Numbered from the stretch's first letter, positions 157 to 24,783 are shown. The stretch: 24,916 nucleotides of DNA from Deinococcales bacterium (GCA_031414595.1 JANNVX010000119.1:1-24916), one strand, 5' to 3'. Program-made: numbers and translations. Notes: generated from the letters alone by a model not told the origin.

Positions 157-210
157 ATGACACAAACTCGAGAATTGATAACTCGGCTCGAGACACGGCG
201 GGTCAGATGA
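157..210 (+). CDS. Putative 17-aa uORF MTQTRELITRLETRRVR
   Basis: AGGAG at 148-152, ATG at 157; its TGA (208-210) overlaps the permease ATG (207-209) as ATGA. Confidence 0.45.
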   Translation: MTQTRELITRLETRRVR

Positions 211-1166
211 GTGCCGTGGCTGCACCAAGGCGGCAGGCTCGAGTACGCGGCTCGTTCTTGGCGCTCAACGAGACCAATCCGCTTGTGCCTTACTTATTTT
301 TGCTGCCCCATGCGATTTTTTTTCTGGTGTTTATTGTTTATCCGGTGGCGTTTGGTTTTTATGTCAGTTTGCATCAGTGGGATTTACTCAGTGGCAATTC
401 GCCATTTGTGGGTTTGAAGTATTACACCCAAATTTTTGATGGCTCGAGTCCGCAGTCGCAATTTTTTTGGAGTACACTCTTAAACACCACTTTTTTTACA
501 GTCGTCAGCGTGCCGCTTTTGGTGGCAACGGCGCTGGGTTTAGCGTTGTTGTTATACCGCCCGATTTTTGGTCAAGCTATTTTTCGAGCGATTTTTTTTA
601 TGCCGGGGATTTTATCGGTTTCGGTCATGGGTATTTTGTGGCGTTGGATGTTTGATAACCAAAGCGGTTTAATCAATGTGGTGCGTGAACAGTTTTTTGG
701 GGTGGCAGTAATTCAATTTTTAACCACCGAAGGCTGGGCGTGGGTGCCGATTATTATTGGTACGGTCTGGTGGACAATCGGTTTTAACATGACCCTCTAC
801 TTGGCGGCGCTGGGTGGGATTAACCAAAGTTATTACGAAGCCGCCCAGTTAGATGGGGCTGGGGCATGGGCGCAATTTCGGTTTATCACCTTGCCGCTAC
901 TTGCCCCAACCACGCTGTTTATTGCTGTCACCACGGTACTGGCAAGTTTTCAGTTATTTGGACAATCTGCACTGATTACTGGCGGTGGTCCAACCCGCAG
1001 CACCCAAAGCGTGATTCAGTACATCACCGAAGAGGCGTTTGGCAATAATCAGCAATCGAGCGCTTCGGCAATGGCATTTGTTTTTGGTGGCTTAATGCTG
1101 GTCTTTACAGCTTTCCAGTTTCGCCTGATGGCAATGGATTTACGTGCCAGCCGAAAGGAGCAATAA
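207..1166 (+). CDS. Carbohydrate ABC transporter permease (MalF/UgpA-like)
   Basis: Multiple TM helices, PYLFLLP start motif, FVGLKYY, EAA loop YYEAAQLDGA, TGGGP. Start moved from TTG 87 to ATG 207. Confidence 0.93.
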   Translation: MSAVAAPRRQARVRGSFLALNETNPLVPYLFLLPHAIFFLVFIVYPVAFGFYVSLHQWDLLSGNSPFVGLKYYTQIFDGSSPQSQFFWSTLLNTTFFTVVSVPLLVATALGLALLLYRPIFGQAIFRAIFFMPGILSVSVMGILWRWMFDNQSGLINVVREQFFGVAVIQFLTTEGWAWVPIIIGTVWWTIGFNMTLYLAALGGINQSYYEAAQLDGAGAWAQFRFITLPLLAPTTLFIAVTTVLASFQLFGQSALITGGGPTRSTQSVIQYITEEAFGNNQQSSASAMAFVFGGLMLVFTAFQFRLMAMDLRASRKEQ

Positions 1167-1168
1167 GT

Positions 1169-2032
1169 ATGCTGACCGCATCAGTCTCGAGTCCAAGAAA
1201 AAAACGCCCCGCTTGGCTGTCGGACGCACCTCGTTTTGGGCTACTGTTGATTCTGGCAATTATTTTTTTAGCCCCGATTTATTGGATGTTGTCCACCAGT
1301 TTTAAGCCAGAAACGGACGCGATTTCGATTCCAATTCAGTGGATTCCAGCCCGTCCGACTTTAGAAAATTACACCGAAATTCTCAATTCACCCGATGGCA
1401 ATTTGTGGCGCTGGACATTTAATTCGGTTTTTACGGCGCTGGCGTTTACTTTGGCACATTTAACACTTTGTGTGCTAACCGCCTATCCATTAGCCCGCCT
1501 TAAATTTGTAGGGCGCGAAACTTGGTTTTGGATTATTTTATCTTCACTGATGATTCCTGGCATCGTCACCTTGATTCCAAGTTACATCATGATGCTGCAA
1601 CTCAATTGGATTGATTCCTACCACGCCCTAATTTGGCCTGGGGTGGCTGGGGTCTTTGGGGTCTTTATGTTGCGCCAATTTTTTACCAATATCCCCTTTG
1701 AACTCGAGGAAGCCGCCCGTTTGGACGGCGCAAATAGTCTGCAAGTCATTCGCCATGTGATTTTGCCGCTCAGTGTCCCTGCTTTGGTTTCGCTGGGTGT
1801 CTTTGCCTTTATGGGTTCATGGAATAATTATGTCTGGCCCTTGTATGTGGCAACCTCGCCCGATATGCAAACCCTCCCTGTGGGGATTACTTCGTTCTCG
1901 CAGCGCTATGTGACCGAGTACGGCAAACTGATGGCGGGTACTGCCATCGCTGCCATTCCAGTCTTAATTGCCTATTTATTTGCCCAACGTTTTTTAATCA
2001 GTGGCATTGCCTTAACGGGGATGAAAGACTGA
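1169..2032 (+). CDS. Carbohydrate ABC transporter permease (MalG/UgpE-like)
   Basis: PIYWMLSTSFK, PTLENY, EAA loop LEEAARLDGA, WNNYVWP, QTLPVG; AAGGAG SD upstream. Confidence 0.95.
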   Translation: MLTASVSSPRKKRPAWLSDAPRFGLLLILAIIFLAPIYWMLSTSFKPETDAISIPIQWIPARPTLENYTEILNSPDGNLWRWTFNSVFTALAFTLAHLTLCVLTAYPLARLKFVGRETWFWIILSSLMIPGIVTLIPSYIMMLQLNWIDSYHALIWPGVAGVFGVFMLRQFFTNIPFELEEAARLDGANSLQVIRHVILPLSVPALVSLGVFAFMGSWNNYVWPLYVATSPDMQTLPVGITSFSQRYVTEYGKLMAGTAIAAIPVLIAYLFAQRFLISGIALTGMKD

Positions 2033-2060
2033 GCATCTTGAAAGCCAAAGGAGTCTCGAA

Positions 2061-3059
2061 GTGAATCTTTTGCGTGTCCTCTGCGTTATTTTATTTGGTC
2101 TAGCCGCCACCGCCCAAACTCCAAAAACCGCCATGACCTATATTAATCCTGTCTACAATTCCGATTTCCCCGACCCTTTTGTGTTGCGGGTTGGCTCGAG
2201 CTATTATGCCTATGCCACCAATGGCGGCGGCGCAACGGTGCAAATTTTGCAATCCAGCGATTTGGTCAATTGGCAAGCCTTATCCGATGCGTTTGGTAAT
2301 CTGCCTGCTTGGGCAACGCCCGGTTGGACTTGGGCACCCGAAGTCGAAGCCGTGCCGAATGGCTACGTGATGTACTACACCACCCGCCACAGCGACAGCC
2401 AAAAACAGTGTATTGGGGTGGCATTTTCAAAATCGCCAAAAGGTCCGTTTACCGACACCAGCAGCCAACCTTTGATTTGTCAACTCGAGGATGGTGGCTC
2501 GATAGATGCCAGCCCATTTACCGACCGCGATGGCAAACGCTATTTGTACTGGAAAAATGATGGCAACTGCTGTGGCTTACTGACTTATTTGTATGTTCAG
2601 CGCTTATCCAGCGATGGCTTGAAGCTCGAGGGTAAAGCAACGGCTTTACTGCACAACACCGAACTCTGGGAAGGAAACTTAATCGAAGCGCCAACCATGT
2701 ACCGGCGCGGCAACAAGTATTATTTATTTTATTCGGCTGCCGATTACAGTAACGACACTTACGCAGTTGGCTATGCCTACAGTGCCAGCCCACTTGGACC
2801 GTTTATCAAATGGCGCGATAACCCAGTCCTGAAGACCACAGGGCAAGTGGCAGGACCCGGGCATCAGTGCATCATCACCGATGAACTCGGGCAGCCGTGG
2901 ATGGTCTACCACGCTTGGACGACGGGTAAAACTGGCTATCCCAATGGGCAACGCACCATGCGGCTTGACCGTTTGGATTTTAAGGATGGTGTGCCAGTGA
3001 TTATTCCGACCACCAGCCGTCAGAATGCACCAAATGCCAAACCAAAAACAGGAAAATAA
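2061..3059 (+). CDS. Secreted GH43 glycoside hydrolase (arabinanase/arabinofuranosidase/xylosidase-like)
   Basis: Signal peptide ending ATA-Q; FPDPFV (base), WAPEV, SIDASPF (pKa modulator), IEAP (acid), GPGH. AAGGAG 2048-2053 before GTG. Confidence 0.92.
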   Translation: MNLLRVLCVILFGLAATAQTPKTAMTYINPVYNSDFPDPFVLRVGSSYYAYATNGGGATVQILQSSDLVNWQALSDAFGNLPAWATPGWTWAPEVEAVPNGYVMYYTTRHSDSQKQCIGVAFSKSPKGPFTDTSSQPLICQLEDGGSIDASPFTDRDGKRYLYWKNDGNCCGLLTYLYVQRLSSDGLKLEGKATALLHNTELWEGNLIEAPTMYRRGNKYYLFYSAADYSNDTYAVGYAYSASPLGPFIKWRDNPVLKTTGQVAGPGHQCIITDELGQPWMVYHAWTTGKTGYPNGQRTMRLDRLDFKDGVPVIIPTTSRQNAPNAKPKTGK

Positions 3060-3061
3060 CC

Positions 3062-5102: not shown

Positions 5103-5266
5103 AGGGTTTTCTACAGATTACTGTTTGGGGCGGATGTTAGTAGTATTACCTACTAGACAAATTTTTTAGTATTTCCAAAGGTGCTTTGAAAGCAGACTCG
5201 AGAAGCAAAGAAATTATTGGTACTTAGGATACCTGCCCCATTCATTTCACGGTACAGTAGCAGCCT

Positions 5267-5671
5267 ATGTCTATTGAACGTACTTTTGCAATGGTAAAAC
5301 CCGACGGTGTGCGCCGTGGTTTGGTTGGCGAGATTATCTCGCGTCTCGAGAAAAAAGGCTTTAAGATTGTGCAGCTAAAAATGCTCACCCCAAGCCGTGA
5401 AATGGTGGCAGAACACTATGCCGAACACAACGGCAAGGGCTTTTTTAATGGCTTGGTGGATTTTTTAAGTGGTGGTGCTGTGGTTGCCATGGAACTCGAG
5501 GGTGAAAATGTAATTGCCGAATGGCGACGCATGATGGGAGCGACCCGTCCGTGGGAAAGTGCGCCCGGTACGATTCGTTTTGAATTTGCCACGACAGTAG
5601 ACGAAAACGTGGCGCATGGTTCGGACAGTTTAGATAGTGCTGCTCGAGAATTGGCTATTTGGTTTAAGTAG
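5267..5671 (+). CDS. ndk: Nucleoside diphosphate kinase
   Basis: ERTFAMVKPDGVRRGLVGEII, PGTIR, NVAHGSDS (catalytic His). Confidence 0.98.
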   Translation: MSIERTFAMVKPDGVRRGLVGEIISRLEKKGFKIVQLKMLTPSREMVAEHYAEHNGKGFFNGLVDFLSGGAVVAMELEGENVIAEWRRMMGATRPWESAPGTIRFEFATTVDENVAHGSDSLDSAARELAIWFK

Positions 5672-5681
5672 GTCTTTCTAG

Positions 5682-5710
5682 TGGCGGCGCTTGGAGCGCC
5701 GCCATTTTTT
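5682..5710 (+). terminator. Intrinsic terminator of ndk
   Basis: TGGCGGCGCT-TGG-AGCGCCGCCA followed by T6. Confidence 0.9.
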
Positions 5711-5759: not shown

Positions 5760-7259
5760 ATGACGATAGAATTGAAACGCATCTCGAGTTGGGTCAATGG
5801 GGCAGCCCATCCAAGTTCTTCTGGACGCAGTGGTAAGGTTTTTAATCCAGCCACGGGTGAACATGCCGCCAATGTGGATTTTATGTCCGTCGAAGAAATT
5901 GATACGGTCGTGGCTGCCTCTAAAGCGGCGTTTGCGGCTTGGCGAGGGACTGGTTTAAGCCGCCGTGCCGAAATCATGTTTCGTTTCCGTGAGTTGCTCG
6001 AGGCAAATAAAGGCAAACTCGCCGAGATTATTTCGCTTGAACATGGCAAAGTCCCGTCCGATGCGGCGGGTGAAATTGCCCGTGGTTTAGAGAATGTCGA
6101 GTTTGCTTGTGGTATTCCGCATCTCTTAAAAGGTGGCTATTCGGAACAGGCTTCACGCGGCATAGATGTCTACAGTATTCGTCAGCCGCTTGGGGTGGTG
6201 GCTGGTGTTACCCCATTTAATTTTCCTGCCATGGTTCCCTTGTGGATGATGGCAAATGCGATTGCTTGTGGCAATACCTTTATTCTTAAGCCTTCAGAAA
6301 AAGACCCGAGTTCGGCGCTGTTTTTAGCCCAATTACTGCAACAAGCTGGGCTGCCCGATGGTGTTTTTAATATCATTCAAGGCGATGCTGTGGCGGTCAA
6401 TGCAATTCTTACGCATCCAGATATTGCGGCGGTTTCTTTTGTCGGCAGCACCCCGATTGCCAAATATATCTACGAAACGGGGACAAAGCATGGCAAACGA
6501 GTCCAAGCCTTGGGTGGCGCAAAAAACCACATGATGCTGCTGCCCGATGCCGACCTCGAGATGGCAGCCGATGCCGCCGTCAATGCCGCGTATGGCAGTG
6601 CTGGAGAGCGCTGTATGGCGATTAGCATGGTGATTGCGGTGGGTGACATTGCCGATGCCTTTATTGAAAAAGTCAAAGAGCGTTTGCCGAAAATTAAAGT
6701 CGGTCCTGGCACAGACCCAAGTGCCGAAATGGGTCCTTTAATCACCAAAGAACACCGTGACCGTGTGGCATCGTATCTCGAGAATGCGCCGCTTGAAGGG
6801 GCTACACTGGTGGTGGACGGACGTGAGAATGTGGTGGCAGGCAATGGCTACTTTCTGGGCGTGAGTTTAATTGACCACTGCAAACCCGGTATGAAATGCT
6901 ACGACGATGAAATTTTTGGACCCGTACTGGGTGTGACCAGAGTTGCCACCTATCAAGAGGGCTTGAAGCTGATTAACGACAACCAATATGGCAACGGCAC
7001 CGCTATTTTTACCAGAGATGGTGGCGCAGCCCGTCAATTCCAGGTTGAGGTCAATGTTGGCATGGTCGGGATTAATGTTCCGATTCCAGTCCCTGTTTCG
7101 TATTACAGTTTTGGCGGTTGGAAAGCCAGTTTATTTGGCGACACCCACATGTACGGACCAGAAGGAATCCAGTTTTACACAAGGGGCAAAGTCGTGACTT
7201 CGCGCTACCCAGACCCCAGCACCAGTAAAATAGATTTGGGCTTTCCACAGAATCGCTAA
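5760..7259 (+). CDS. mmsA: CoA-acylating methylmalonate/malonate-semialdehyde dehydrogenase (MmsA/IolA)
   Basis: TPFNFPAMVPLWM, KPSEKDP, FVGSTP, GGAKNH, SAGERCMA (catalytic Cys), EIFGPV, GINVPIPVP; GGAGG SD. Confidence 0.95.
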   Translation: MTIELKRISSWVNGAAHPSSSGRSGKVFNPATGEHAANVDFMSVEEIDTVVAASKAAFAAWRGTGLSRRAEIMFRFRELLEANKGKLAEIISLEHGKVPSDAAGEIARGLENVEFACGIPHLLKGGYSEQASRGIDVYSIRQPLGVVAGVTPFNFPAMVPLWMMANAIACGNTFILKPSEKDPSSALFLAQLLQQAGLPDGVFNIIQGDAVAVNAILTHPDIAAVSFVGSTPIAKYIYETGTKHGKRVQALGGAKNHMMLLPDADLEMAADAAVNAAYGSAGERCMAISMVIAVGDIADAFIEKVKERLPKIKVGPGTDPSAEMGPLITKEHRDRVASYLENAPLEGATLVVDGRENVVAGNGYFLGVSLIDHCKPGMKCYDDEIFGPVLGVTRVATYQEGLKLINDNQYGNGTAIFTRDGGAARQFQVEVNVGMVGINVPIPVPVSYYSFGGWKASLFGDTHMYGPEGIQFYTRGKVVTSRYPDPSTSKIDLGFPQNR

Positions 7260-9792: not shown

Positions 9793-9911
9793 GCTGCTTA
9801 GTTTAGCTGATTCTGTTTGGCTCGAGTAGCACCACCTGGTAGTAAAACACCCAGACCAATAGCGTTTTTCTTAGGTGTGCCGCTCGAGATGAGCTTAGGT
9901 AGCACTGAACT

Positions 9912-11429
9912 TTATCCAATCGCCCAATCTGAAATTTGTTTCTGCTCGAGGTCAAACAGCACACCAACTTTAACCACGGGTTTACTTAGACTATCGGCGT
10001 AACGACTCGAGTCTATTTGATTTAAGGCTTCTTGTGCCGTACCTGTAATCTTAAATTCAAAAATAATGCTGAACTCAAAAGTGGTGGTTAGCGTGTCCAT
10101 TCGCCCAAGACTGGTTTGAACTTGGCTTTGGGTTTGAAAGCCCGTACTAATCAGCATTAAGTGCATTAAACTATGCACATACGATTCTTTTTTCGGGAAA
10201 ATCTCGTATGGAATTCCCGCTAACACCCTGTTCGCAACTTCAAAAAATTTCACCCAATCCAAAACCAGCAGTGCATCTTGCAACTCGAGACTAAAACTGC
10301 CAATATAACTTTGGCTTTGGCTGTACTCGAGCAGTAGGCTCTTAGAAAATGCCTGACGCACTTCTTCGTTTGGGTATGACAGCAAATACCGTGTCCCAAG
10401 GGTGTTGCGGGTTTTGGCAATCATCGTTAAATAACCCGTTTGGAACATTAGGCTAACAGGTTCAAGATTCTCGACATTGGTGCTGCTGATGCTCATTTCA
10501 TCCAAAGCTATCGAATCAAAACGCATCGGGTCAAACTGAGCCTGGCGAATCATTTCGACCAGAAAAGTGGGTGTGCCTGTTTCGTACCAAAAAGACCTGA
10601 ATTCTTGATTCTCTAAAAAAAGCAAAAACGAGAAGGGGCAGAACATTTTATGCACCCCGTCCCATGAATAGCCGTTGTACCAAAAAGTAATCGCTTCCCA
10701 TAAAACTGGCATTGAAACACCTAGAACAACAGCTATCGGCTCGAGCCACGCTGTAAAATGCGTTTCGATTTCGTCGCGGCTGTACCCACAAACCTGAGCG
10801 TACTTTTGATTCAAGCTAATGTCTTGCAAATTGTTCAGGTCAGAGAACAAACTGAGCTTACCGATTTTAGAAACACCTGTTAAGAACACCAGATGGATAT
10901 GGGCATCGAGCGGTTTGAGGACACCATAAACACTTTTTAGAATCGCTTGATGTTCGCCACGTTTTTCTGGCTCGAGCAGATGGTCGGTGATTGGTTTGTC
11001 GTACTCGTCTATTAAAACCACAACTTTGGTATTTTTTGATAACTCGAGAATCAGTTCCCGAAAAGCATCTCTGGCATTTAAGCTCTGTAAGGTATAGCCG
11101 TACTCGAGCGCATTGATACGCAACCAATCCACAATTCCAGCGTCTAGCGGCTTAGAAGTAAAATTGATGTTGCTAAAATCAAGCCGAATCACTGGGCGCG
11201 GCGTAAAATCATGCCGTTGCTCGAGCCAGAGATTAGCAAATAAATCCTTGCGCCCCACAAAAACCGCTTTTAAGGTAGTCAGCAGCAATGACTTGCCGAA
11301 TCGTCTTGGACGCGCCAAAAAGTAACGCCCTCCAGCCAGTAATGGTTGTAAGAGCATGGTTTTATCCACGTAAATATAATTTTCTTCACGTAAATGCGTA
11401 AAATCTTGAATTCCAGTCGGGAGGCGCAT
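9912..11429 (-). CDS. AAA-ATPase-like protein with C-terminal PD-(D/E)XK nuclease (DUF1703-type)
   Basis: LPTGIQDF..YVDKT, RPRRFGKS Walker A, LIDEYDKP Walker B, WYNGY, GRMD..IFEFK..ALNQI. Start moved to ATG 11429; TACAAT -10 lies 6 nt upstream. Confidence 0.9.
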   Translation of the reverse strand: MRLPTGIQDFTHLREENYIYVDKTMLLQPLLAGGRYFLARPRRFGKSLLLTTLKAVFVGRKDLFANLWLEQRHDFTPRPVIRLDFSNINFTSKPLDAGIVDWLRINALEYGYTLQSLNARDAFRELILELSKNTKVVVLIDEYDKPITDHLLEPEKRGEHQAILKSVYGVLKPLDAHIHLVFLTGVSKIGKLSLFSDLNNLQDISLNQKYAQVCGYSRDEIETHFTAWLEPIAVVLGVSMPVLWEAITFWYNGYSWDGVHKMFCPFSFLLFLENQEFRSFWYETGTPTFLVEMIRQAQFDPMRFDSIALDEMSISSTNVENLEPVSLMFQTGYLTMIAKTRNTLGTRYLLSYPNEEVRQAFSKSLLLEYSQSQSYIGSFSLELQDALLVLDWVKFFEVANRVLAGIPYEIFPKKESYVHSLMHLMLISTGFQTQSQVQTSLGRMDTLTTTFEFSIIFEFKITGTAQEALNQIDSSRYADSLSKPVVKVGVLFDLEQKQISDWAIG

Positions 11430-11466
11430 AGGAGCATTGTACTCGAGTAAGTGCGTGGCTGCTACA

Positions 11467-13182
11467 TTAAAAATTTTCAACTTCGTTTCGCAGCCGTGCT
11501 GCCCTAGTTTGTAACTGCTCGAGATTGGCTTGGGTTTGGGCATAACGTTCGGTTTCGGCACGAATAAACCTTGTAAATGGGGCTATCGCGTCGCGTAATC
11601 TGCCTTGGGCGCGTTCCCCTTCTAAGCTATGTTCACGCAGCAGCACTTCGGCGAGCCGTTCACGGGTTTCACGAATGCGGGTCTCGAGTTCGGCTTTGGC
11701 TTGGGCGCGTTTGCGCGGCAGAATCAAAAAACCCAGTCCAGCCACGGCAATACCCAGCAGAATCCCCGTAAAATCTGCCAGTAATGTCCCGAACACCCCA
11801 GCCAGCAATGCGCCCAGTCCGATTCCACTAACACTGGTTAGTCCACCACGCACCACCGCACTCGAGGCATCGGTGGCGAGTTGGCGGGCAAATTCTCCGC
11901 CTTCAAAACGGGCAATTTCGGCATTGGCGGCTTGCCCTAAGCGCTCGAGTAAACCTTGACGGTCATAATCAAATTGTGCGCCGCGTACCAGTGCGGCACG
12001 GGTTTCATCGGCTTGTCCTCGGGTGCTTAGAATTTGCACCGTGTCGTTCCAGAATTTGACGTTGCGTTCTAAGAAGCGGTCTATGATGTCGGACACACGG
12101 CGCTCAAGTTGTTGCGGCGCATCGGCAACCACTTCGCGTTCAAAACGCCCACGGATTTTATCGGCGTTCAGTAATTCTAGGGTTTTAGAGACCCGCAAAG
12201 TATCGTCTATAAAAATCTCACCGCGTTTTTGTACCCCGTCTAGCACGTTATAGACATTATTTAACTGCGCCTCGAGTTGGGTTTTTAAGTCGTTTTGATG
12301 ATGCAAAAATTCTTGTTCGATGTCGTTTAAGAGCTTACTATCGGCGGTTAGCAATTCTTGACTGGCTTTAACCCGTGCTACAGCCCGGGTTAAAAGTTCG
12401 CTCGAGACCCCAAGCGGCGAAAGCAACTTCAGGCGTACCCGATTTTGTTCGCCCAAGACCTCACGCAAGTGCTGCTCGAGGGCAAGAAAACCCGTGTCGT
12501 TGTGTTCGCGTTTTTGTCGTCTTGCCGAGACCATAAAAATTGGCGGGGTTTCGCCAAGCGTGGCAAGGGCATTGGATTTTACAAAGTCATAGACTGTGGT
12601 TTTATCGGTGTCCGACTCGAGTAAATCTATTTTGTTAATCACCATCACGACTTTGCGCGACCAGGCTCTGGCAAGGCTTAAAAATTGGCGTTCGGATTCA
12701 GAAAATGGGCGGTCTGCACTGGTTAAAAACAGCAGCAAGTCAGCCCTTGGCAAAAACCCTTCGGTGATAATTTGGTGCTGCCGAATAACGGCGTTTGTAC
12801 CGGGTGTATCTACCAAGGCTACGCCTTCTAAAAAACCAAAAGGTAGTTCTCGGCGTATCACAAACGCATCTTGGAGCGGTTCGTAGGGCGTGATTGTATC
12901 TTGTGTACCATGCACTAAAATCTGAACTTTATCGGTGGTCGGTGTGACTCCCTCGAGCAGCGCATCACCACCCAGTAAAGCGTTCAAGAGTGAAGATTTG
13001 CCAGAATTAAATTCGCCCGCCACGACCAATAAAAAACTCTGCTCGAGACCAGTGGCGGCGGCTCTAGCATCGCGCAATTCGCTTTCTGGGGCAAGGCTGG
13101 CAGTCAGGGCTTCGCGTAAATCACCCAGAAAAGCACGATGTAAGGTTAGGCGCTCGAGAACACGAGGGTCGAGGAGATTCAT
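11467..13182 (-). CDS. Bacterial dynamin-like GTPase (BDLP/FZL-like) with C-terminal membrane hairpin
   Basis: GEFNSGKS (G1), TPTT (G2), DTPG (G3), NKID (G4), helical stalk, hydrophobic GIGLGALL...GLGFLILP segment. Confidence 0.9.
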   Translation of the reverse strand: MNLLDPRVLERLTLHRAFLGDLREALTASLAPESELRDARAAATGLEQSFLLVVAGEFNSGKSSLLNALLGGDALLEGVTPTTDKVQILVHGTQDTITPYEPLQDAFVIRRELPFGFLEGVALVDTPGTNAVIRQHQIITEGFLPRADLLLFLTSADRPFSESERQFLSLARAWSRKVVMVINKIDLLESDTDKTTVYDFVKSNALATLGETPPIFMVSARRQKREHNDTGFLALEQHLREVLGEQNRVRLKLLSPLGVSSELLTRAVARVKASQELLTADSKLLNDIEQEFLHHQNDLKTQLEAQLNNVYNVLDGVQKRGEIFIDDTLRVSKTLELLNADKIRGRFEREVVADAPQQLERRVSDIIDRFLERNVKFWNDTVQILSTRGQADETRAALVRGAQFDYDRQGLLERLGQAANAEIARFEGGEFARQLATDASSAVVRGGLTSVSGIGLGALLAGVFGTLLADFTGILLGIAVAGLGFLILPRKRAQAKAELETRIRETRERLAEVLLREHSLEGERAQGRLRDAIAPFTRFIRAETERYAQTQANLEQLQTRAARLRNEVENF

Positions 13183-13439
13183 AATTTAAGGCTATCACTT
13201 TGCTGCCCTCGAGTGGGATGGCTTACTATTTTAAGACTTTTGCTGTCAATCGCAACTTTATGCACTTTGTTTTTGAAGTTTTTAGTACAGACAGCGCTTA
13301 CGATTGTATTTAATAGTTCAAGTTTTTTAAGTACCCTGTGAGAAACAATAAAATCGTGGGCTGGACTGGTTTTTGATTGTCATGCCGAGCTTGGTTCTTG
13401 AGGCAAGCAATTGCGTAAGCTCGCATCCGAGGTAAATAT

Positions 13440-13983: not shown

Positions 13984-15423
13984 ATGCTGATTCACCTCGA
14001 GAAGGCTGGCGTAGAACTTAATCATCAAGTCTTACTCGAGAAGATTAACTTAGAAATTCGCCAAGGTGATGTACTGCATTTAATCGGCGCAAACGGTTCA
14101 GGTAAAAGTACCCTCTTAAAACTCTTATCAGGCGATTTTTGGCACTCGAGCGGCACACGAAGCTACTACTTTACGCATCCGCCACGCAGCAGTCCAATTG
14201 GCGCTAAACAACATATCGCCTTGGTCAGTCCAGAGCTTCAAGAACGGTATCAGCGCCTGAATCATGACCGTAACGCCTTAGAGGTTTTACAGACGGGTTT
14301 TATGCAAAGCGATTTTTTATATACTCCACTCGAGCCAGCCCAACAAAAGGCGGTGCTTGAGGCTGCCGAGCGATTCAAAATTACAGCCTTTCTCGAGCAG
14401 CTCTTTAACCAACTTTCCAAGGGTCAAATGCGTCAAGTGCTGCTGACCCGCGCCTTGTTGCTCGAGCCAAAAGTATTGCTGCTGGATGAGTTTTTTAGTG
14501 GTGTGGATACGAGTTCTCGAGCCAGACTGCGTGGAGTTGTCAAAAATTACCTTGAACATGGTGGAACACTGGTTTACACCACCCACCGCCAAGAAGAACC
14601 TTTTGCGGCATCCGAAAAAACCTTACTGCTCGAGAACAAAACCATTTGTTGGTACAGCCCCAACAAAAAAATTCAATCAATTCCAGTCAAACAAGCTCGA
14701 GTTAAAGCACAAACCGAAATTTTAGTCCAAATCAAAAATGCCAATCTGTACCTTGGTGAACCCAAAGACGATGCCACCGCCCCAGACGGACACGCCATCA
14801 GCCAAAAAAAACTGATTCTCGAGCAAATCAATTTTACTTTGTACCGCCACCAACACTGGCTGATTACTGGACACAACGGCGCAGGAAAAAGTACCTTTGC
14901 TCGGCTTTTACGCGGCGACATCCCAGCCGCACACGGCAGTCAAATAACTTGGTTCGGTTCAGAAAAAACCCCAATTTGGCAACGCCAAGCCAGAATTGCC
15001 CTTGTCTCGAGCGACATGCAGGCATGGCACAGGGTAGACGCTAGTGGGTACGAGATTGTTGCCAGTGGATTTTCTGGCGGTATTGGCTGGCATAGACCAC
15101 TCGAAGCTCACCAAACGTCTCGAATCGAAAAGCTGTTTGCACAACTCAAGATTGAATACTTAGCGAGTCGCAACGCCCTGCACACCTCCCAAGGTGAATT
15201 ACGAAAATTACTTCTAGCAAGGGCTTTGGTCACAAACCCAGAAATTATTATTTTAGATGAAGCCTTTGACTACCTAGACCCACCCTCGAGAGACCTGATT
15301 TGGACGGTTCTAAGCCAGCAAAACGCGACGCTGCTGATTATTGCACATCGCAAAGACGACAAGCCGCCATTTGCTACACTGCACTTGGAACTCGAGAAAG
15401 GAAGAGCAAGGGTGAAAAAATAA
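13984..15423 (+). CDS. ABC ATP-binding protein with duplicated NBDs (ModF-like)
   Basis: Walker A GANGSGKST and GHNGAGKST, signatures LSKGQ/TSQGE, Walker B LLLDE/IILDE; no TM. Start moved to ATG 13984. Confidence 0.85.
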   Translation: MLIHLEKAGVELNHQVLLEKINLEIRQGDVLHLIGANGSGKSTLLKLLSGDFWHSSGTRSYYFTHPPRSSPIGAKQHIALVSPELQERYQRLNHDRNALEVLQTGFMQSDFLYTPLEPAQQKAVLEAAERFKITAFLEQLFNQLSKGQMRQVLLTRALLLEPKVLLLDEFFSGVDTSSRARLRGVVKNYLEHGGTLVYTTHRQEEPFAASEKTLLLENKTICWYSPNKKIQSIPVKQARVKAQTEILVQIKNANLYLGEPKDDATAPDGHAISQKKLILEQINFTLYRHQHWLITGHNGAGKSTFARLLRGDIPAAHGSQITWFGSEKTPIWQRQARIALVSSDMQAWHRVDASGYEIVASGFSGGIGWHRPLEAHQTSRIEKLFAQLKIEYLASRNALHTSQGELRKLLLARALVTNPEIIILDEAFDYLDPPSRDLIWTVLSQQNATLLIIAHRKDDKPPFATLHLELEKGRARVKK

Positions 15424-15436
15424 AAACCTTAACCCT

Positions 15437-16330
15437 TTAACCCTGCCCGTATTCCCTCGCCGCCAGCGCAGCCCCAATCACACCAGCATCGCTGCCAAGA
15501 ACAGCTTTGTAAATAACAGGAACAGCAAATCCTTTGGCTTCGGCTTCGGCTACAGCTCGGATTTTATTTAAGAAGAAATCGCCGACCTCCGAAACGCCGC
15601 CACCCAGCACAAAAACTTCTGGGTCGAGATTTTTTTGTAGGTCGGCAATGGCGCAACCAATGTAGCGAGCCGCTTGGTCTACAATTTTGACGGCTCGAAA
15701 TTCGCCATTTTGTGCCATCACAAAAAGTTCTTTGGTATCCACGGCTCGAGCAAAGGCATAAGTGGCATCGCGAGACAGGGCAGTACCACTGGCAACCGCT
15801 TCTAATGCCCCAGACACGCCACTGCCAGCAATCACCCCGCCGGGCAAGGAAATAATATGTCCGATTTCACCAGCGATTCCATTTGCACCGCGCCAAATAC
15901 GGTTATTAAGGATAATTCCGCCGCCAATCCCGGTCGAAATGGTGATGAAATAACTTGAACTTGCGCCGCGTCCAGCCCCGTAGGTGTGTTCGGCAAGTCC
16001 GGCGGCATTGGCATCGTTCTCGAGTTCGATGTGTAAACCCAAGCCAGCTTGTAAGGCAGCCACCACAGGCGCATTGACGATGCCGTTAATGTTTGGAGCA
16101 AATTTAATTTCACCTTTTTTGAAATCGAGTGGTCCGGGTACGCCAACCCCAACTCGAGTGGCAGGAGCGGTTTTTAGAACTTCTTTAGCCGCTTCAATCA
16201 TCGCGGCAAAAACACTGTCCGCACCATCTTTTGGGGTTGGGATAACCACTTTAGCAATAATTTTACCGTCTTGTACGGCTGCGGCTGCGATTTTTGTACC
16301 ACCAAGATCAATTCCAATGAGCGTTTCCAT
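15437..16330 (-). CDS. glk: ROK-family sugar kinase (glucokinase-like)
   Basis: IGIDLGGTK, GVPGP, ENDANAAGLAE, STGIGGG, GEIGH; no N-terminal HTH. Confidence 0.85.
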   Translation of the reverse strand: METLIGIDLGGTKIAAAAVQDGKIIAKVVIPTPKDGADSVFAAMIEAAKEVLKTAPATRVGVGVPGPLDFKKGEIKFAPNINGIVNAPVVAALQAGLGLHIELENDANAAGLAEHTYGAGRGASSSYFITISTGIGGGIILNNRIWRGANGIAGEIGHIISLPGGVIAGSGVSGALEAVASGTALSRDATYAFARAVDTKELFVMAQNGEFRAVKIVDQAARYIGCAIADLQKNLDPEVFVLGGGVSEVGDFFLNKIRAVAEAEAKGFAVPVIYKAVLGSDAGVIGAALAAREYGQG

Positions 16331-16381
16331 CTGTCCAGACTACCATGTGATTACTCGAGAGCCGTCCGTGGGTGATTAGAC

Positions 16382-16455: not shown

Positions 16456-16510
16456 GAGGTTTTTGTGACATTCTGGACACACTTTTTTGACTCGAGTCTA
16501 CTGTCGTGTG

Positions 16511-17437
16511 TTATACGGCTTTTCCCGCACTGCCCAAAACCTGCATTCGGTGCGCCGCGATTTCTTTCATCACATCTTTGGCAGGTCCGAGGATTTTACG
16601 CGGGTCAAATTCGGCAGGGTTTTTCATCAGCACTTCACGCACCGCCGTGGTAAAGGCAAGGCGTAAATCGGTATCTATATTGACCTTGGCAATGCCAAAT
16701 TTGGTGCTTTGTTTGAGGTCGTCATCGTGAATTCCAGCCGCTTCGCCAATTTCGCCACCAGAAGCCTTAAACCTATCGGTTAGCCACTGTGGAACGCCAG
16801 AAGCCCCGTGCATCACAAGTGGAATCGGGGTTAGGGAAGCGATTTTTTCGATGCGGGCATGGTCAATAAACGGTCTGCCTTTGCCTTTGTACGCGCCGTG
16901 ACTTGTGCCGATGGCTATTGCAAGGTAATCCACACCTGTTAATTCAATAAACCGAGCCGCTTCTTCGGGGTCGGTTAAAAAGGCATCTTCGGCAGAGACA
17001 TCCACATGCTCTTCGATGCCACCCAAACGCCCAAGTTCGGCTTCGACCGTCACGCCATGGGCATGGGCATACTCGACCACTTCTTTGGTGATTCGCACAT
17101 TCTCATCGAACTGGTCATGCGAAGCATCAATCATCACACTGGTAAAGCCAGCCGCAATTGCACTTTTACAAATCTCTAAACTCGAGCCGTGGTCTTGATG
17201 AATGGCTACAGGTACGCTCACACGGCTTGCCATATCAGCAATCATGTGTGCCAGATTTTCTGTGCCAGCGTACTTTCTAGCGCCTTCGGAAATTTGTAGA
17301 ATTACGGGGCTGCGTAGTTTCTCGGCGGTTTCCAGAATGGCTTGGGTGAATTCCAAGTTGTTTGTGTTGAAAGCACCAACGCCGTACTGACCTGCGCGGG
17401 CTGCGCTTAAAATTGCTCCACCAGTGACTAAGGGCAT
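16511..17437 (-). CDS. fba: Class II fructose-1,6-bisphosphate aldolase
   Basis: GAFNTNN, HQDHG, SVMIDAS, VEAELG, GTSHGAYK, MHGASG, KVNIDTD, FDPRK; AGGAGG SD. Confidence 0.97.
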   Translation of the reverse strand: MPLVTGGAILSAARAGQYGVGAFNTNNLEFTQAILETAEKLRSPVILQISEGARKYAGTENLAHMIADMASRVSVPVAIHQDHGSSLEICKSAIAAGFTSVMIDASHDQFDENVRITKEVVEYAHAHGVTVEAELGRLGGIEEHVDVSAEDAFLTDPEEAARFIELTGVDYLAIAIGTSHGAYKGKGRPFIDHARIEKIASLTPIPLVMHGASGVPQWLTDRFKASGGEIGEAAGIHDDDLKQSTKFGIAKVNIDTDLRLAFTTAVREVLMKNPAEFDPRKILGPAKDVMKEIAAHRMQVLGSAGKAV

Positions 17438-17532
17438 AATAATCCTCCTAAGACCTCGGTTCTCGAGGTTTAGGGTATCGTAACCCAGTCTGCCTTCAAA
17501 GTGCTTGTACCAAGTCTAGTCTCATGGCTCTA

Positions 17533-20191: not shown

Positions 20192-20260
20192 ATGTTATCC
20201 AAATGTTGTAAAACGATTTTAGATTTAACGACTGTTAGGTAGATTTTATGCAATCCAGAT

Positions 20261-20845: not shown

Positions 20846-20849
20846 AAAT

Positions 20850-20867
20850 ATCTGCCGGTTGGTAGAT
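20850..20867. promoter_or_regulatory. Candidate TetR autoregulatory operator
   Basis: Imperfect palindrome ATCTGCC-GGTT-GGTAGAT, 4 nt from the tetR ATG, overlapping a minus-strand TAATCT -10 (20869-20864). Confidence 0.6.
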
Positions 20868-20927
20868 TACTGGGATTAACTGCCAGTAACCATGAAGCAG
20901 CTTACAATTTGGTTGCTCGAGTTTTGA

Positions 20928-21869
20928 TTAACCATAAAACCACTGCACAAAATCATCCTCGAGTGGCAACAACAAATCCAAGTATTTTCCATCATGTCCA
21001 GCCACAAAACCAGTTATCTTGGTCGAAAAATACGGGCGATGATCCACCCGAGTCAATCCCAAACCGAGGCGTGTAAGCTCAGATGCTAAATGTTCACAAA
21101 TGCGCTCGCCTTCGGCTTGACTCCCGAGCTTGGCGGTGAGCAGTGTACGACCATCCCCAAATTCGAGTTTACCTTCAGGTCCTCGAGCCAAAATAAGTGC
21201 TAGTAACCCCGAATAGCTCGAGGCTACACCCTGCTCGAGTGCAAAAGCGACTCGAGCCTCAAAGGTTGTGAGCCGCACCCGAACTTCAAGCCATGTGTCT
21301 TGTTGCAGGACTTGAACTCGAGCATCCGTTCCCTCGAGCATCTGCGCTTCACGCTGAATTCGTTCTTGCGTAGCATTGGCTAGATTTATTTCACCACAAT
21401 CAAGTAAAGCAATTGCCCAGCCGTGATGTAATTCTGGTTTGGCATTCCAACCACCAAGCAGCAGCACCTCGAGTAAACCTAAAGCTCGAGTTGGTAGATT
21501 AATTGGGTTTAGCCCTAGTATTGAATCAGGCGAAAAATTTTGTTCAGTGATCCATTCTTGCCAAGTGGTTTGTACACCTGTGGATAAAGTCACGGTCAGG
21601 GCATTAGTATCAATCAAGCACCACGGCATGGTTAAGAGCGGTTTGATTTTCTCAAAATGCCATGATTCTATTGGGTTTCGTGCCAGTAAATACAAATGCT
21701 TCACTTGGTCAGATTCAATAAAATACGCATCTTGATTACTTTTTTGGTACTCAACCACCCAAGCATTGATGATTGAATCCGTTCCGATTCGTACAGGGAA
21801 ATTAGTAAGGGCATGGTCTCGAGTAGCCGCAAAATGCCACGCCATTTGATTCCAAACAAAGTGATTCAT
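20928..21869 (-). CDS. Hypothetical protein (313 aa), no family recognised
   Basis: Long ATG-initiated ORF filling the gap between tetR and the mutS2 promoter region. Confidence 0.75.
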   Translation of the reverse strand: MNHFVWNQMAWHFAATRDHALTNFPVRIGTDSIINAWVVEYQKSNQDAYFIESDQVKHLYLLARNPIESWHFEKIKPLLTMPWCLIDTNALTVTLSTGVQTTWQEWITEQNFSPDSILGLNPINLPTRALGLLEVLLLGGWNAKPELHHGWAIALLDCGEINLANATQERIQREAQMLEGTDARVQVLQQDTWLEVRVRLTTFEARVAFALEQGVASSYSGLLALILARGPEGKLEFGDGRTLLTAKLGSQAEGERICEHLASELTRLGLGLTRVDHRPYFSTKITGFVAGHDGKYLDLLLPLEDDFVQWFYG

Positions 21870-22058
21870 AGTTAATCCATGTTACACCGAAGCAACAACT
21901 ACACCCAGTAAAAATTCGCCCTCCCAAGATTAAGCATATTTAATTCAATCTACGCCATAATATAAACCATAGCTACGCCGTTAAGCGCATTCAATTTGGG
22001 CTTTAAGGGATTTATAATCTTCGGCTGAGATGTTATTTTCATCTCGAGTGGAGATGTC

Positions 22059-24350
22059 GTGATAACAAGTCGTGCCTTAGAAGTCCTTGAATTTCAACCT
22101 ATCCGTGAAGCCATTGCGGAGCGTTCAAGCACAGTCATGGGTCGAGAACTGGCGCTGGCGCTTCATCCAACTTCGGATGCTTACGCTGTTCGTACCATGA
22201 TTGAACAACTCGAGGATGCCCTGATTGGCTCGAGTCTGCACCTTGGTGGAATTACCGATGTGCGCGGGGTCATCAGTAAACTCGGACAAGGACAATTGGT
22301 GGGCGCACCTGAACTGCTCGAGGTTGCTTATACCTTAGATGCTGCCATGACCTTACGCCGCAGCATTGCCCAGCACAGTTTGGGTCCTCTGATGCACGTT
22401 GCCGAAAAAATTGGACAGCACACGATTTTAACCCGCAGTATTTTAGAAAAACTCAACCGCGATGGGTCGGTACGCGACGATGCCAGCCCAAAATTGCGCC
22501 AATTACGCCGCCGACTCGAGCCGCTTCGCAGCCAAATTCGTGACAGCCTAACCCGCATCATGGAACGAAACGGCGAGTACCTGCAAGACAAAATTATCAC
22601 CATTCGCCGCGATAGGTATGTGATTCCCGTCCGCTCGAGTTTTGAAAATCAAGTCCCCGGAATTGTGGTGGATTCAAGTGCCAGCCAACAAACCGTGTTT
22701 ATCGAACCTGCCAGTGTTGTACCACTCAATAACGAACTTGCCCGCACCGTCATCGAAGAAGAACAAGAAGTTGCCCGAATCCTGCTCGAGCTAACCCGCA
22801 TGGTGGCTGATGAACCGGGGCTTTGGGAAACACTACGGGCTGTTGCCGAACTCGATTTAATTGCTGCTAAAGCCGCCCTGTGCAAAGACTGGGATTTAAC
22901 CCGACCCGATGCCAGTCCCGAAGGCGATTTTGAAGTTATAGATATTCGCCACCCGTTAATTAAAGATTGCATCCCCAATTCATTTCGCCTCGGTAAAGAA
23001 CGGCGTTTACTTTTAATTACCGGACCAAACATGGGCGGCAAAACCGTCACCCTAAAAAGCCTAGGTTTAGCCATTGCAATGCACCAAAGCGGTTTATTTG
23101 TTCGGGCATACAGTGCCAAATTACCGATTGTCCAAGAAATCCTGTGCGATATTGGCGATGGTCAGAACCTGCTCGAGAGCCTAAGCACCTTCGCCGCCCA
23201 TCTTAAAAACCTCAGTACGATTCTCGAGCGAGCCAAATCTGGCACGCTTGTTTTAATAGATGAACTCGGAAGCGGCACAGACCCTTCTGAGGGCGCGGCA
23301 CTTTCTCAAGCCATGATTGAACAGTTATTAACCCAAGGCGCTCGAGGGATTATTACAAGCCACCTCACGCCCCTAAAAATCTTTGCATCCGAACGCCAAG
23401 ATGTGGTCAATGCCAGCATGAGCTTTGATGTCGAGAATTTGCGCCCAACCTATAAACTCTCAATTGGCGCACCCGGACGTTCCTATGCTCTCGCCATTGC
23501 ACGGCGCTTGGGCTTTCCAAACAGCGTGGTCTCGAGGGGCGAAACGATTTTAGGACCCGAAGGGCTACAAGTCGAAAAACTGCTCGAAGCGCTTGAAGTC
23601 GAACGCAAAAACTTAGAAACCGATGCCGCCGCCGCCAGAGTTGCCAAAGAACACAGCGAGCGCCAAGAAAAAGAACTCCGCATTAAACTCGAGCAATTAG
23701 AACAACAAAAAAACCAGTTTCTACTCGAAGCCCAAGCCAAAGCCGATAGCGTTTACCGCAACGCCATTGAACAAGTTCGGCAACTTAAAAACCGCACCCA
23801 AACCGACCTACAAACTGAACGCCCCAAAGTCATGCAGGAATTACGCGACCTTCGGGCGGCCGCCCAAGCCGAACGCCCACAAATGAGTGCTGTGCAACGC
23901 GAACCAGAAGCGCTAAAAGCTGGCGCGAGTGTTGAAGTTCCAAGTTATGGCACAAACGGCAAAATTCTCGAGTTACGCGGCGAAGATGTACTGGTGCAAA
24001 TGGGGTTACTGAAAGTGACACTTAAGCGCCGTGATGTGCGCCTAAAACAAAATGGTGTTAGTGTCAAAGCCGCCAGTGGCGGGGTGTACGTTTCCCCCTC
24101 GAGTTTCACCAAAGAACTAAATTTGCGTGGCGCTCATGTTGAAGAAGCGATTGAAGAAGTGCGGAATTTTATCACCGAAGCCCAAGCCTTGCGCGAAGGG
24201 CAAATTCGGATACTGCACGGCAAGGGCGAAGGGATACTCAGGCGCGTGGTGCGGGATTACCTGAAAACCGACAAGCGCATCTCGAGTTACAGCGACGCGA
24301 ACCCCAACGAAGGTGGGCATGGCGTGACCATAGCTAATATTCGGGTGTGA
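22059..24350 (+). CDS. mutS2: MutS2 endonuclease/ATPase with C-terminal Smr domain
   Basis: LEVLEF start, ITGPNMGGKT Walker A, LSTFAAH, LIDELGSGTDP, coiled coil, LNLRG..ILHGKGEG..GGHGVT Smr; GGAG SD before GTG; TATAAT at 22013-22018. Confidence 0.97.
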   Translation: MITSRALEVLEFQPIREAIAERSSTVMGRELALALHPTSDAYAVRTMIEQLEDALIGSSLHLGGITDVRGVISKLGQGQLVGAPELLEVAYTLDAAMTLRRSIAQHSLGPLMHVAEKIGQHTILTRSILEKLNRDGSVRDDASPKLRQLRRRLEPLRSQIRDSLTRIMERNGEYLQDKIITIRRDRYVIPVRSSFENQVPGIVVDSSASQQTVFIEPASVVPLNNELARTVIEEEQEVARILLELTRMVADEPGLWETLRAVAELDLIAAKAALCKDWDLTRPDASPEGDFEVIDIRHPLIKDCIPNSFRLGKERRLLLITGPNMGGKTVTLKSLGLAIAMHQSGLFVRAYSAKLPIVQEILCDIGDGQNLLESLSTFAAHLKNLSTILERAKSGTLVLIDELGSGTDPSEGAALSQAMIEQLLTQGARGIITSHLTPLKIFASERQDVVNASMSFDVENLRPTYKLSIGAPGRSYALAIARRLGFPNSVVSRGETILGPEGLQVEKLLEALEVERKNLETDAAAARVAKEHSERQEKELRIKLEQLEQQKNQFLLEAQAKADSVYRNAIEQVRQLKNRTQTDLQTERPKVMQELRDLRAAAQAERPQMSAVQREPEALKAGASVEVPSYGTNGKILELRGEDVLVQMGLLKVTLKRRDVRLKQNGVSVKAASGGVYVSPSSFTKELNLRGAHVEEAIEEVRNFITEAQALREGQIRILHGKGEGILRRVVRDYLKTDKRISSYSDANPNEGGHGVTIANIRV

Positions 24351-24416
24351 TGCTAGACTTGCTAAAGTTTTACATTCAGAATAATGTCTATAGCTTCTTA
24401 GTATGAGAGGAGTCTT

Positions 24417-24783
24417 ATGAAAATGAGCTTCAAGTCTACTTTTATAATCGTTTCTATTATTAGTTTTATTTCTGTAAGTTGTGCGATTCAATATCCAATA
24501 GTTCAACAAGCATCACCTATAAATTTGCAGAGTGAGATTCAAAGTGCTATATCTCGAGGTCAATCAAGTTTAACCTTACCCTCAGGTACTTATCGAGTTG
24601 AAAATCATTTGATGATTGCTAATGCAAAGAACTTTATTTTAGATGGTAATTATTCCGATATTATATTTACGAGTAAAGCTGGTAAAATTCTTATTTATAA
24701 TTCGGAAAGCATAACAATTCGCAACTTAAAAATTGACTACGACCCTTTACCCTATACACAAGGAACGATTACGTCAGTTGAAT
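24417..24783 (+). pseudogene. 5' part of an AT-rich putative lipoprotein with right-handed beta-helix, interrupted by an IS
   Basis: AGGAG SD, lipobox-like ISVSC, LPSGTY..FILDGN..ITIRNLKIDYDPLPYTQGTI typical of pectin-lyase-fold/GH110-like N-termini; the residues after TSVE are IS-derived. Confidence 0.7.

Follow-up and report, generated by a model that had tools for sequence, protein, structure and literature searches.

CTCGAG is a true highly iterated palindrome (HIP) of a clade of Deinococcota. The analysis concerns a stretch of 24,916 nucleotides from an uncultured Deinococcales bacterium (GCA_031414595.1, JANNVX010000119.1:1-24916), which is called the window in its entirety, and the genome from which it comes (G000; 4.49 Mb in 120 contigs, 47.2% guanine plus cytosine (GC), 94% complete, 0.5% contaminated). 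A first-pass annotation of the window, made from the sequence alone, had noticed the hexamer about 137 times and had proposed that a process acting on DNA itself writes or retains it genome-wide. CTCGAG is the most frequent of all hexamers in G000, with 23,235 copies, that is one per 193 bases or about 5,180 per Mb, some 24 times the number expected from composition. It is present on all 120 contigs at 2.3-8.6 per kilobase (kb), and is thus not confined to the one contig on which it was noticed. That CTCGAG is in genome-wide excess, and that this excess lies at the DNA level, is nearly certain.

Abundance of CTCGAG and its origin at the DNA level

A recount of the window gave exactly 137 copies, as the annotation had it, the first at 167 and the last at 24553-24558, which is one per 182 bases over this span. 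About 6 copies are expected by arithmetic from base composition, and the excess of about 20-fold first reported is right on that null; 100 shuffles preserving dinucleotides gave a mean of 3.25 and a maximum of 8 copies, none of them reaching 137, and on this null the excess is about 42-fold. GAGCTC, which is CTCGAG reversed without complementing, does not occur in the window. Within the 23 listed open reading frames (ORFs) lie 128 of the 137 sites, 69 in phase 0, 28 in phase 1 and 31 in phase 2. The three coding examples given in the annotation do represent phases 0, 1 and 2 (ORFs 5267-5671 and 5760-7259), and all eight positions that it called intergenic fall outside ORFs, together with a ninth (Table 1).

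For the whole genome, genes were called crudely as the longest non-overlapping ORFs of at least 120 codons (3,610 genes, 86% coding), the non-coding part including short genes. On these calls, CTCGAG occurs at 5.15 per kb in coding and 5.32 per kb in non-coding DNA, and its 19,975 coding copies are divided into 11,880, 3,901 and 4,194 in phases 0, 1 and 2, respectively. Synonymous codons were also shuffled within each gene, with the proteins and the codon usage of the gene kept; this left 1,950 copies, a tenfold difference, and the enrichment therefore persists under the control for codon and dipeptide usage that the annotation had called for. Leucine is written CTC in 86% of cases before GAG versus 16% before GAA, and glutamate is written GAG in 93% of cases after CTC versus 29% after other leucine codons. 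Overall, CTC makes up 16% of leucine codons and GAG 33% of glutamate codons, and both are used mostly within CTCGAG. The odds that Leu-Glu is written CTCGAG are about 31 times those of codon use outside the word, which corresponds by arithmetic to a scaled strength (natural logarithm) of about 3.4. Of the positions at which CTCGAG is synonymously possible, 60% are filled in phase 0, 46% in phase 1 and 37% in phase 2.

The prevalence of phase 0 (CTC GAG) among coding sites might suggest that the word merely follows from a usage of codons, dipeptides or oligonucleotides in which Leu-Glu, CTC and GAG are favoured, and in high-GC Thermus-like genomes CTCGAG and GAGCTC are indeed raised about equally. 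However, this origin is refuted by the equal density in non-coding DNA, by the tenfold difference from the synonymous shuffle and by the filling of phases 1 and 2. GAGCTC has only 6 copies in G000, and the preference for CTC and GAG exists mostly within CTCGAG itself, so that an origin in usage is extremely improbable.

The word is exact. Its 18 one-letter neighbours occur at 0.17-1.23 times expectation versus 24 times for CTCGAG, and the three transition neighbours are the commonest of them at 1.07-1.23 (CTTGAG/CTCAAG 1.07, TTCGAG/CTCGAA 1.23). Each of the 12 flanking positions on either side holds less than 0.05 bit of information, and therefore the unit is the bare hexamer and no longer element. 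Density is flat at about 5.2 per kb from -300 to +300 bases around ORF starts and ends, apart from a dip to 3.8 per kb over the opening 30 bases of ORFs and a slight rise around stops (6.4-6.7 per kb). Gaps between sites have a mean of 191 bases, a median of 138 bases and a coefficient of variation of 0.99; compared with a shifted exponential, gaps below 30 bases occur at 0.33-0.81, those of 60-240 bases at 1.15-1.17 and those of 480-1000 bases at 0.75-0.83 of expectation, and gaps above 1,500 bases are in strong excess.

A dispersed mobile element resembling repetitive extragenic palindromic (REP) sequences or miniature inverted-repeat transposable elements (MITEs) might come to mind, as a clustered regularly interspaced short palindromic repeats (CRISPR) repeat of G000 carries CTCGAG, but the uninformative flanks and the near-random spacing speak against it. 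An assembly or library artefact is refuted by the excess in all 19 genomes of the source family, which come from many assemblies, and by contigs of three other studies that cover the window. The probability left to an element or an artefact is therefore negligible. In the other-study contigs, from four runs, 20-29 of the 30 bins of the window's first 20 kb are matched at 85-99% likeness. These contigs differ from the window by transitions and transversions at a ratio of about 2:1 (927 versus 447 in run X5), and this ratio fits the transition-rich neighbour spectrum of CTCGAG. Among the 40 differences listed out of 2,317, one falls within a CTCGAG site (6557) versus about 1.3 expected, a comparison without statistical power. 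Overall, the annotation's view that a genome-wide process at the DNA level, rather than one amino-acid pair, underlies the excess is borne out by the coding and non-coding densities, the shuffle, the flanks, the flat profile around genes and the filled opportunities.

Site-free stretches

Fifteen gaps in G000 exceed 1.8 kb. The eight that were inspected have 36-45% GC, and the genes in most of them are of an accessory kind (polysaccharide and O-antigen genes, DUF2326, NOV_C, a clostripain-like peptidase and a pretoxin-HINT protein). ATP-binding cassette (ABC) transporter genes are carried by one stretch, at 44.5% GC. No Rfam RNA was found in these eight stretches, and therefore they are not rRNA operons. 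Among 1,842 genes longer than 900 bases, 29 lack CTCGAG, and these have a mean GC of 40.0% versus 47.4% overall. Such low-GC deserts are probably recent horizontal arrivals in which CTCGAG has not yet been acquired, and the word probably marks the residence time of DNA in the genome. It would be of use as a practical marker for foreign DNA in word-rich genomes.

Distribution in Deinococcota

A survey of 364 Deinococcota genomes gave CTCGAG densities from 0 to about 8 per kb. The set includes one unpublished genome, G324, on which none of the conclusions depends. In the source family, the 19 genomes carry 4.3-6.8 per kb on rounded genome sizes, and the excess is also found in 12 of the 12 relatives of the first set; absence from relatives, which the annotation had named as a sign of a library artefact, is thus not what is observed. 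GAGCTC has 0-25 copies in 16 of the 19 family genomes. Source-family loci span 44-63% GC and all have 4-7.7 CTCGAG per kb, and therefore density is roughly constant regardless of composition.

Beyond this family, three genus-level groups of the Thermus family reach 1.4-3.5 per kb, and two loci titled Meiothermus sp., at 65-67% GC, have 3.6 and 4.45 per kb. The annotation had named a similar enrichment in Meiothermus-like genomes, and this holds. In the Thermus-like group, at 0.6-1.6 per kb, CTCGAG does not exceed GAGCTC. GAGCTC is depleted in several genera of the family with Trueperaceae-titled loci, and CTCGAG reaches about 2-2.8 per kb in them. A large genus of 111 genomes, taken to be Deinococcus-like from its locus titles, shows no excess, each genome having 26-1,372 sites, which is the number expected or fewer. 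The same family holds G022, G140 and G141 with 3.6, 8.6 and 7.0 per kb, respectively.

G142 is placed in the genus of G140 and G141 and has 0.30 CTCGAG per kb, about 24-fold below G141; the aldolases of G141 and G142 are 82% identical, the same as those of G140 and G141. In a 400-kb sample of G142 (L157-L176, 49.5% GC), CTCGAG stands at 1.25 times expectation and its transition neighbours CTTGAG and TTCGAG at 1.59 and 1.43. This slight excess of transition neighbours and that of Leu-Glu (1.27) could, as a weak indication, be a fading relic of the word.

The fate of the other palindromes is an observation in its own right. In G000, 58 of the 64 palindromic hexamers fall short of expectation, 34 of them to less than 0.1 of it; examples in 4.49 Mb, beside GAGCTC, are GGGCCC (0 copies), TGCGCA (2) and CGATCG (3), and the tetramers GGCC and GATC stand at 0.011 and 0.14 of expectation. 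The profile of G142 is different and much milder, with 3 of 64 palindromic hexamers below 0.1, TGGCCA at 2.26 times expectation and CTAG-containing palindromes nearly absent (ACTAGT 1, GCTAGC 4).

Retention between relatives

CTCGAG sites are retained between relatives far beyond other hexamers. At about 75% DNA identity, 72-78% of the window sites are kept versus 24-25% for all hexamers, and at about 90% identity 82-88% versus 62%. In other pairs of family members 82-90% are kept, whereas the overall hexamer rate is 48-52% and that of composition-matched hexamers 51-60%. A more distant pair keeps 22 of 40 sites versus 23% of hexamers, and the Meiothermus pairs, with two sites, were too short for an estimate. 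When the amino acids are conserved in codon alignments of medium divergence, 38 of 42 sites are intact versus 32% of control hexamers. Because both lineages of a pair are under the same pressure, retention measures that pressure and not the common descent of each site. Of 25 Deinococcota orthologues of the window's aldolase gene, 15, one of them at a Meiothermus locus, have CTCGAG at the position aligned with the gene's only site (Table 1). Aldolase positions 102 and 251 carry CTCGAG in both the source family and Meiothermus, which is compatible with common descent or with parallel filling.

Effect on proteins

No dipeptide of the G000 proteome exceeds expectation as strongly as Leu-Glu, which has 19,768 occurrences or 2.23 times the expected number; Glu-Leu, Val-Glu and Met-Glu stand at 0.99, 0.72 and 0.53. 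Leu-Glu is at 0.94 in crude ORFs of four word-poor high-GC loci (L013-L016), three of which are titled Deinococcus, and its value of 1.27 in G142, given above, comes from the 400-kb sample of that word-free genome. Across 79 orthologue pairs of G000 and G142 (32,958 aligned residues, 57.7% identity), Leu-Glu occurs 516 times in G000, 339 of these written CTCGAG, versus 305 times in G142. Of the G142 occurrences 54% are matched in G000, and only 32% in the reverse direction. The residues of G142 opposite a CTCGAG-coded Leu-Glu are mostly Leu-Asp, Ile-Glu, Leu-Lys or Leu-Gln, each one base off. Given this asymmetry, either one lineage has gained Leu-Glu on balance or the other has lost it; taken with the dipeptide figures, the asymmetry is read as amino-acid replacement driven by CTCGAG.

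CRISPR spacers and viral DNA

Contig C11 holds the densest kilobase of G000 (20 sites), which is a CRISPR array at about 14150-16150 (L323:1653-3644). The array has 28 repeats of 35 bases, each with one CTCGAG and one CTGCAG; as a side observation, these repeats supply 28 of the 51 CTGCAG copies of G000. Its 27 spacers total 1,011 bases (47.3% GC), and eight of them hold one CTCGAG each, at offsets that vary. These 8 sites amount to 7.9 per kb; about 0.2 sites would be expected from composition. None of the spacers is fully matched in the host, the longest match elsewhere in G000 being 17-18 bases, and none matches a cultured phage. The DNA recorded as invading therefore equalled the host in its content of the word, and its source could be phages, plasmids or the DNA of kin. 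Viral contigs were scanned for sets of three close sites, which gave at least 120 stretches, mostly single chance matches; among those listed, five lack GAGCTC and have CTCGAG at 4.1-5.9 per kb, and L315, the longest of the five, has 57 sites over 9.7 kb.

Possible mechanism

We propose that a force on the DNA itself, which would recognise the exact hexamer only, drives possible positions to CTCGAG and keeps them there. A protein with the all-or-none specificity of a restriction enzyme for CTCGAG would act in mismatch or heteroduplex repair, or in recombination after exchange, and the word-bearing allele would be copied over the word-lacking one, that is, by biased gene conversion. Since neighbours show no graded preference and five of six letters gain nothing, the word appears to be read as a restriction enzyme or methyltransferase would read it, and not by a loose structural protein. 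A bias at a single position, as with Vsr, is insufficient for a 24-fold excess, and the pressure must therefore favour the full word over every neighbour. A conversion bias would explain the indifference to gene features, the accepted amino-acid changes, the constant density at 44-63% GC and the sharing of the word with passing DNA. We infer a single protein exact for the hexamer and a bias in place of selection, and we see about an even chance that this is correct.

Several observations weigh against conversion bias. Our family searches identified no protein that reads or writes CTCGAG. No methyltransferase orthologue is common to the word-rich genomes G000, G009, G011, G141 and G022 at a threshold of at least 30-35% identity. 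Vsr (PF03852) had no match among 18 candidates scored in the 94%-complete G000, and the XhoI-family endonuclease (PF04555) had none in G000 either, a weak negative since the family was silent in all 14 control genomes too. The neighbour expected to suffer from Vsr-type deamination is not depleted, CTTGAG being at 1.07 times expectation, and no depletion specific to a mismatch type is seen. On these results the annotation's suggestion of a methyltransferase with biased repair is not confirmed, as a shared methyltransferase orthologue, Vsr and an XhoI-family match are all lacking and the transition neighbour is not depleted. Thermus and Deinococcus are known as the naturally competent members of the phylum, and the Thermus-like and Deinococcus-like groups, so taken from locus titles, have no CTCGAG excess. 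Furthermore, retention and parallel filling are compatible with conversion bias or with weak selection per site and cannot separate them; the scaled strength, about 3.4, is one that selection on codon usage also reaches; and spacing between islands is slightly evener than random, which is what a local benefit that falls with site density predicts.

The main rival is accordingly weak selection at every site, in which each CTCGAG would bring a small local benefit and be held in the manner of codon bias. The retention far above control hexamers, the strength resembling that of codon-usage selection and the mildly even spacing all suit it, and the spacers carry CTCGAG at host density, as mimicry of a self-tag would predict. 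The lack of any positional preference relative to genes does not suit it, nor does the acceptance of amino-acid changes at thousands of places, which is a cost. We consider such selection a possible explanation, clearly less probable than conversion bias. The benefit could tentatively be the binding of an abundant nucleoid protein, a self-tag for defence or for the processing of DNA ends, or an uptake or recombination signal as proposed for HIP1. We know of no CTCGAG-binding protein. For HIP1, Kamoku and Nielsen report that the methylated word raises transformation of a cyanobacterium up to more than 100-fold.

A recombination signal similar to Chi would require nucleases of the AddAB/RecB type, and these do not follow CTCGAG. 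The nuclease (PDDEXK_1) was not found in G007, G009 and G010, G000 has only a 256-residue protein, and several word-poor genomes possess it. A Chi-like signal read by this nuclease was rejected on the ground that its occurrence does not correlate with CTCGAG abundance.

In the HIP model of Elhai, an orphan methyltransferase would mark CTCGAG or its TCGA core, and methyl-directed mismatch repair would copy the methylated, word-bearing strand. HIP1 and alternate HIPs are linked to cognate methyltransferases (Elhai, 2015, PMC4390886), an orphan CTCGAG methyltransferase exists in Nocardia (Blow et al., 2016, PMC4752239), and a 2026 preprint gives CTCGAG and TCGA among the methylated motifs common to one hot-spring host-phage group. 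G000 itself has about 24 DNA-methyltransferase genes (Eco57I, N6, N4/N6 and C5 families) and one D12-class gene, and the word-free G142 matches none of four methyltransferase families; G141 and the other word-rich genomes profiled have at least three matches. However, clustering of the C5, N4/N6, N6 and Eco57I-type enzymes of the five word-rich genomes, with G142 also profiled, left no orthologue in common at the identity given above. In the word-rich G022 the matches amount to only one C5 enzyme and two large ones of the Eco57I type, all three unrelated to the G000 enzymes; G022 also lacks the D12 class, as does the word-rich G173. Different methyltransferases sharing one specificity could serve in different word-rich genomes. 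On balance, we think the methyl-directed model unlikely.

Most methyltransferase genes of G000 carry CTCGAG at normal density. For 23 methyltransferases NCBIfam gave nothing more specific than generic class names, and the only matches among solved structures were distant ones, to type I and BseCI-like enzymes. One enzyme, a TaqI_C-type methyltransferase (G000:C4:28798-30786), was tried as a family-wide cause and rejected, since G001 (88%) and G003 (68%) are the only two of the 20 relatives searched with an orthologue, which counts against the methyl-directed model too. The gene belongs to a probable type II restriction-modification unit (G000:C4:28375-31586; L061:6375-9530) that is found only in G000, G001 and G003. 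The methyltransferase has 663 residues with an N-terminal helix-turn-helix and a TaqI-type target domain, and the flanking ORFs of 148 and 246 residues have no Pfam family.

The putative endonuclease family Uma2 (PF05685), which is greatly expanded here, offers a suggestive lead only, as its copy number partly tracks CTCGAG excess and GAGCTC depletion. When every candidate is scored, ten word-rich genomes have 24, 27, 11, 32, 19, 3, 0, 15, 17 and 23 matches, and five word-poor genomes have 1, 1, 10, 0 and 0. G000 has 24 matches, and relatives have up to 42 candidates at first look; among the 14 control genomes, only Synechococcus elongatus, Thermus thermophilus and Deinococcus radiodurans have any. 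There are exceptions in both directions, G022 being word-rich with none and the Thermus-like G016 word-poor with 10.

A wider and rather speculative idea takes in that the same lineages are purged of nearly all other palindromes. CTCGAG might be a methylation-independent identity tag of a gene pool, in which an exact, nuclease-like reader tilts each repair and recombination event to CTCGAG and so makes host, phages and exchanged DNA converge on the word, and other palindromes are policed by solitary endonucleases such as Uma2; the HIP words of cyanobacteria and Deinococcota would then belong to one kind of system. We regard this as improbable at present.

Window genes and site coordinates

The genes of the window are ordinary chromosomal ones, including ABC permeases, two GH43 hydrolases, nucleoside diphosphate kinase, aldehyde dehydrogenase, a two-component pair, a class II aldolase, ZnuA and MutS2. 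Two ORFs have no Pfam family, 20928-21869 (-) with 313 residues and 24417-24854 (+) with 145 residues. An AAA-ATPase with a PD-(D/E)XK domain is encoded at 9912-11561 and looks like an accessory insertion. A contig from run X5 joins position 9858 to 11465 with six other letters between, and therefore represents a related strain without this gene. The sites discussed above are collected in Table 1.

Table 1. CTCGAG sites of the window and site-free stretches of the source genome (G000; contig:start-end).
Feature	Position	Strand	Remarks
All 137 CTCGAG sites	167..24558	.	3.25 expected; GAGCTC 0
Intergenic site	5197..5202	.	Between ORF ending 5102 and ORF starting 5267
Intergenic site	9821..9826	.	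Spacer 9793-9911
Intergenic site	9883..9888	.	Spacer 9793-9911
Site outside listed ORFs	13208..13213	.	After ORF 11467-13182
Intergenic site	16354..16359	.	Between ROK kinase and aldolase genes
Intergenic site	16491..16496	.	Between ROK kinase and aldolase genes
Intergenic site	17462..17467	.	Between aldolase and ZnuA genes
Intergenic site, absent from the first-pass list	20916..20921	.	Spacer 20846-20927
Intergenic site	22043..22048	.	Upstream of mutS2
Phase-0 site, CTC GAG = Leu-Glu	5495..5500	+	Nucleoside diphosphate kinase gene 5267-5671, offset 228 from start codon
Phase-1 site, nCT CGA Gnn	5643..5648	+	Nucleoside diphosphate kinase gene 5267-5671, offset 376
Phase-2 site, nnC TCG AGn	5783..5788	+	Aldehyde dehydrogenase gene 5760-7259, offset 23
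Sole CTCGAG of aldolase gene	17181..17186	-	Gene position 251, phase 2
Site-free stretches, 2.4-4.9 kb	C46:36667-41608; C30:4279-7534; C14:37565-40431		G000, regions of 36-42% GC
Site-free stretches, 2.4-4.9 kb	C96:7391-10013; C49:33402-35798; C18:74211-76579		G000, regions of 36-42% GC

Comparison with known systems

Hyper-abundant palindromes have been an open puzzle for about thirty years. In the literature outside subscription journals and supplementary files, we found no published report of CTCGAG abundance in Deinococcota, and its status as unreported is provisional; papers that contain both CTCGAG and Meiothermus concern, by their titles and the start of their abstracts, only the cloning and characterisation of enzymes. 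The mechanism is now testable. The sister pair G141 and G142, with its difference of about 24-fold, and the graded densities over 364 genomes are tools for this puzzle. Moreover, some CTCGAG-rich Meiothermus-like genomes are in one to three contigs and are probably isolates, which would allow methylomes, repair bias and transformation to be measured.

Very-short-patch repair by Dcm and Vsr raises CCWGG and lowers CTAG-type words in Escherichia coli. It resembles the present case as a sequence-specific repair bias that shifts oligonucleotide frequencies. However, as set out above, Vsr was not found in G000, the neighbour that it predicts is not depleted, and a bias at one position cannot give 24-fold. 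The uptake signal sequences (USS) of Pasteurellaceae and the DNA uptake sequences (DUS) of Neisseriaceae are non-palindromic words of 9-12 letters that occur about once per kb. They are similar to CTCGAG in that short words accumulate genome-wide, genes included, by transmission bias and not by benefit to the gene, and they differ from it in their greater length, their lack of symmetry and their lower density. We know of no uptake specificity in Deinococcota.

The Nocardia case shares the very word, as a solitary enzyme outside restriction methylates CTCGAG there, but in Nocardia the motif clusters at the replication origin near dnaA (Blow et al., 2016, PMC4752239), whereas in G000 it is spread evenly and its densest kilobase is the CRISPR array. 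In cyanobacteria poor in HIP1, alternate HIPs, which are other GC-rich palindromes or derivatives, fill the role, each with a specific methyltransferase (PMC4390886). These are similar to CTCGAG in that a different palindrome takes the place of HIP1 in some lineages at similar densities; the cases described by Elhai are, however, all cyanobacterial and each has its methyltransferase, and none is assigned to CTCGAG.

The closest relation is with HIP1 (GCGATCGC) itself. Both are GC-rich palindromes far above expectation throughout a lineage, within genes in all frames and between genes (PMC4390886; PMC5861425). HIP1 is kept between genomes beyond codon usage (Xu et al., 2018, PMC5861425), and so is CTCGAG. 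Each occurs within a CRISPR repeat (for HIP1, PMC6604393), and in each lineage members that lack the word stand beside members that bear it, with the cause unexplained in both. CTCGAG differs in having six letters instead of eight, in its sequence and in its phylum. HIP1 occurs at 300-2,700 per Mb with a fold excess of 55-228 (Elhai, 2015, PMC4390886); CTCGAG is denser (about 5,180 per Mb) and its fold excess is lower (24). In addition, no co-occurring cognate orphan methyltransferase was found for CTCGAG, and its effect on proteins, the Leu-Glu excess, is clear. With its excess, its presence in all frames and in non-coding DNA beyond what codon usage gives, its conservation and its lineage-wide occurrence, CTCGAG has every descriptive feature of the HIP class. 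It is a second, independent case in another phylum, a shorter and different word that is denser than HIP1 and visibly rewrites proteins.

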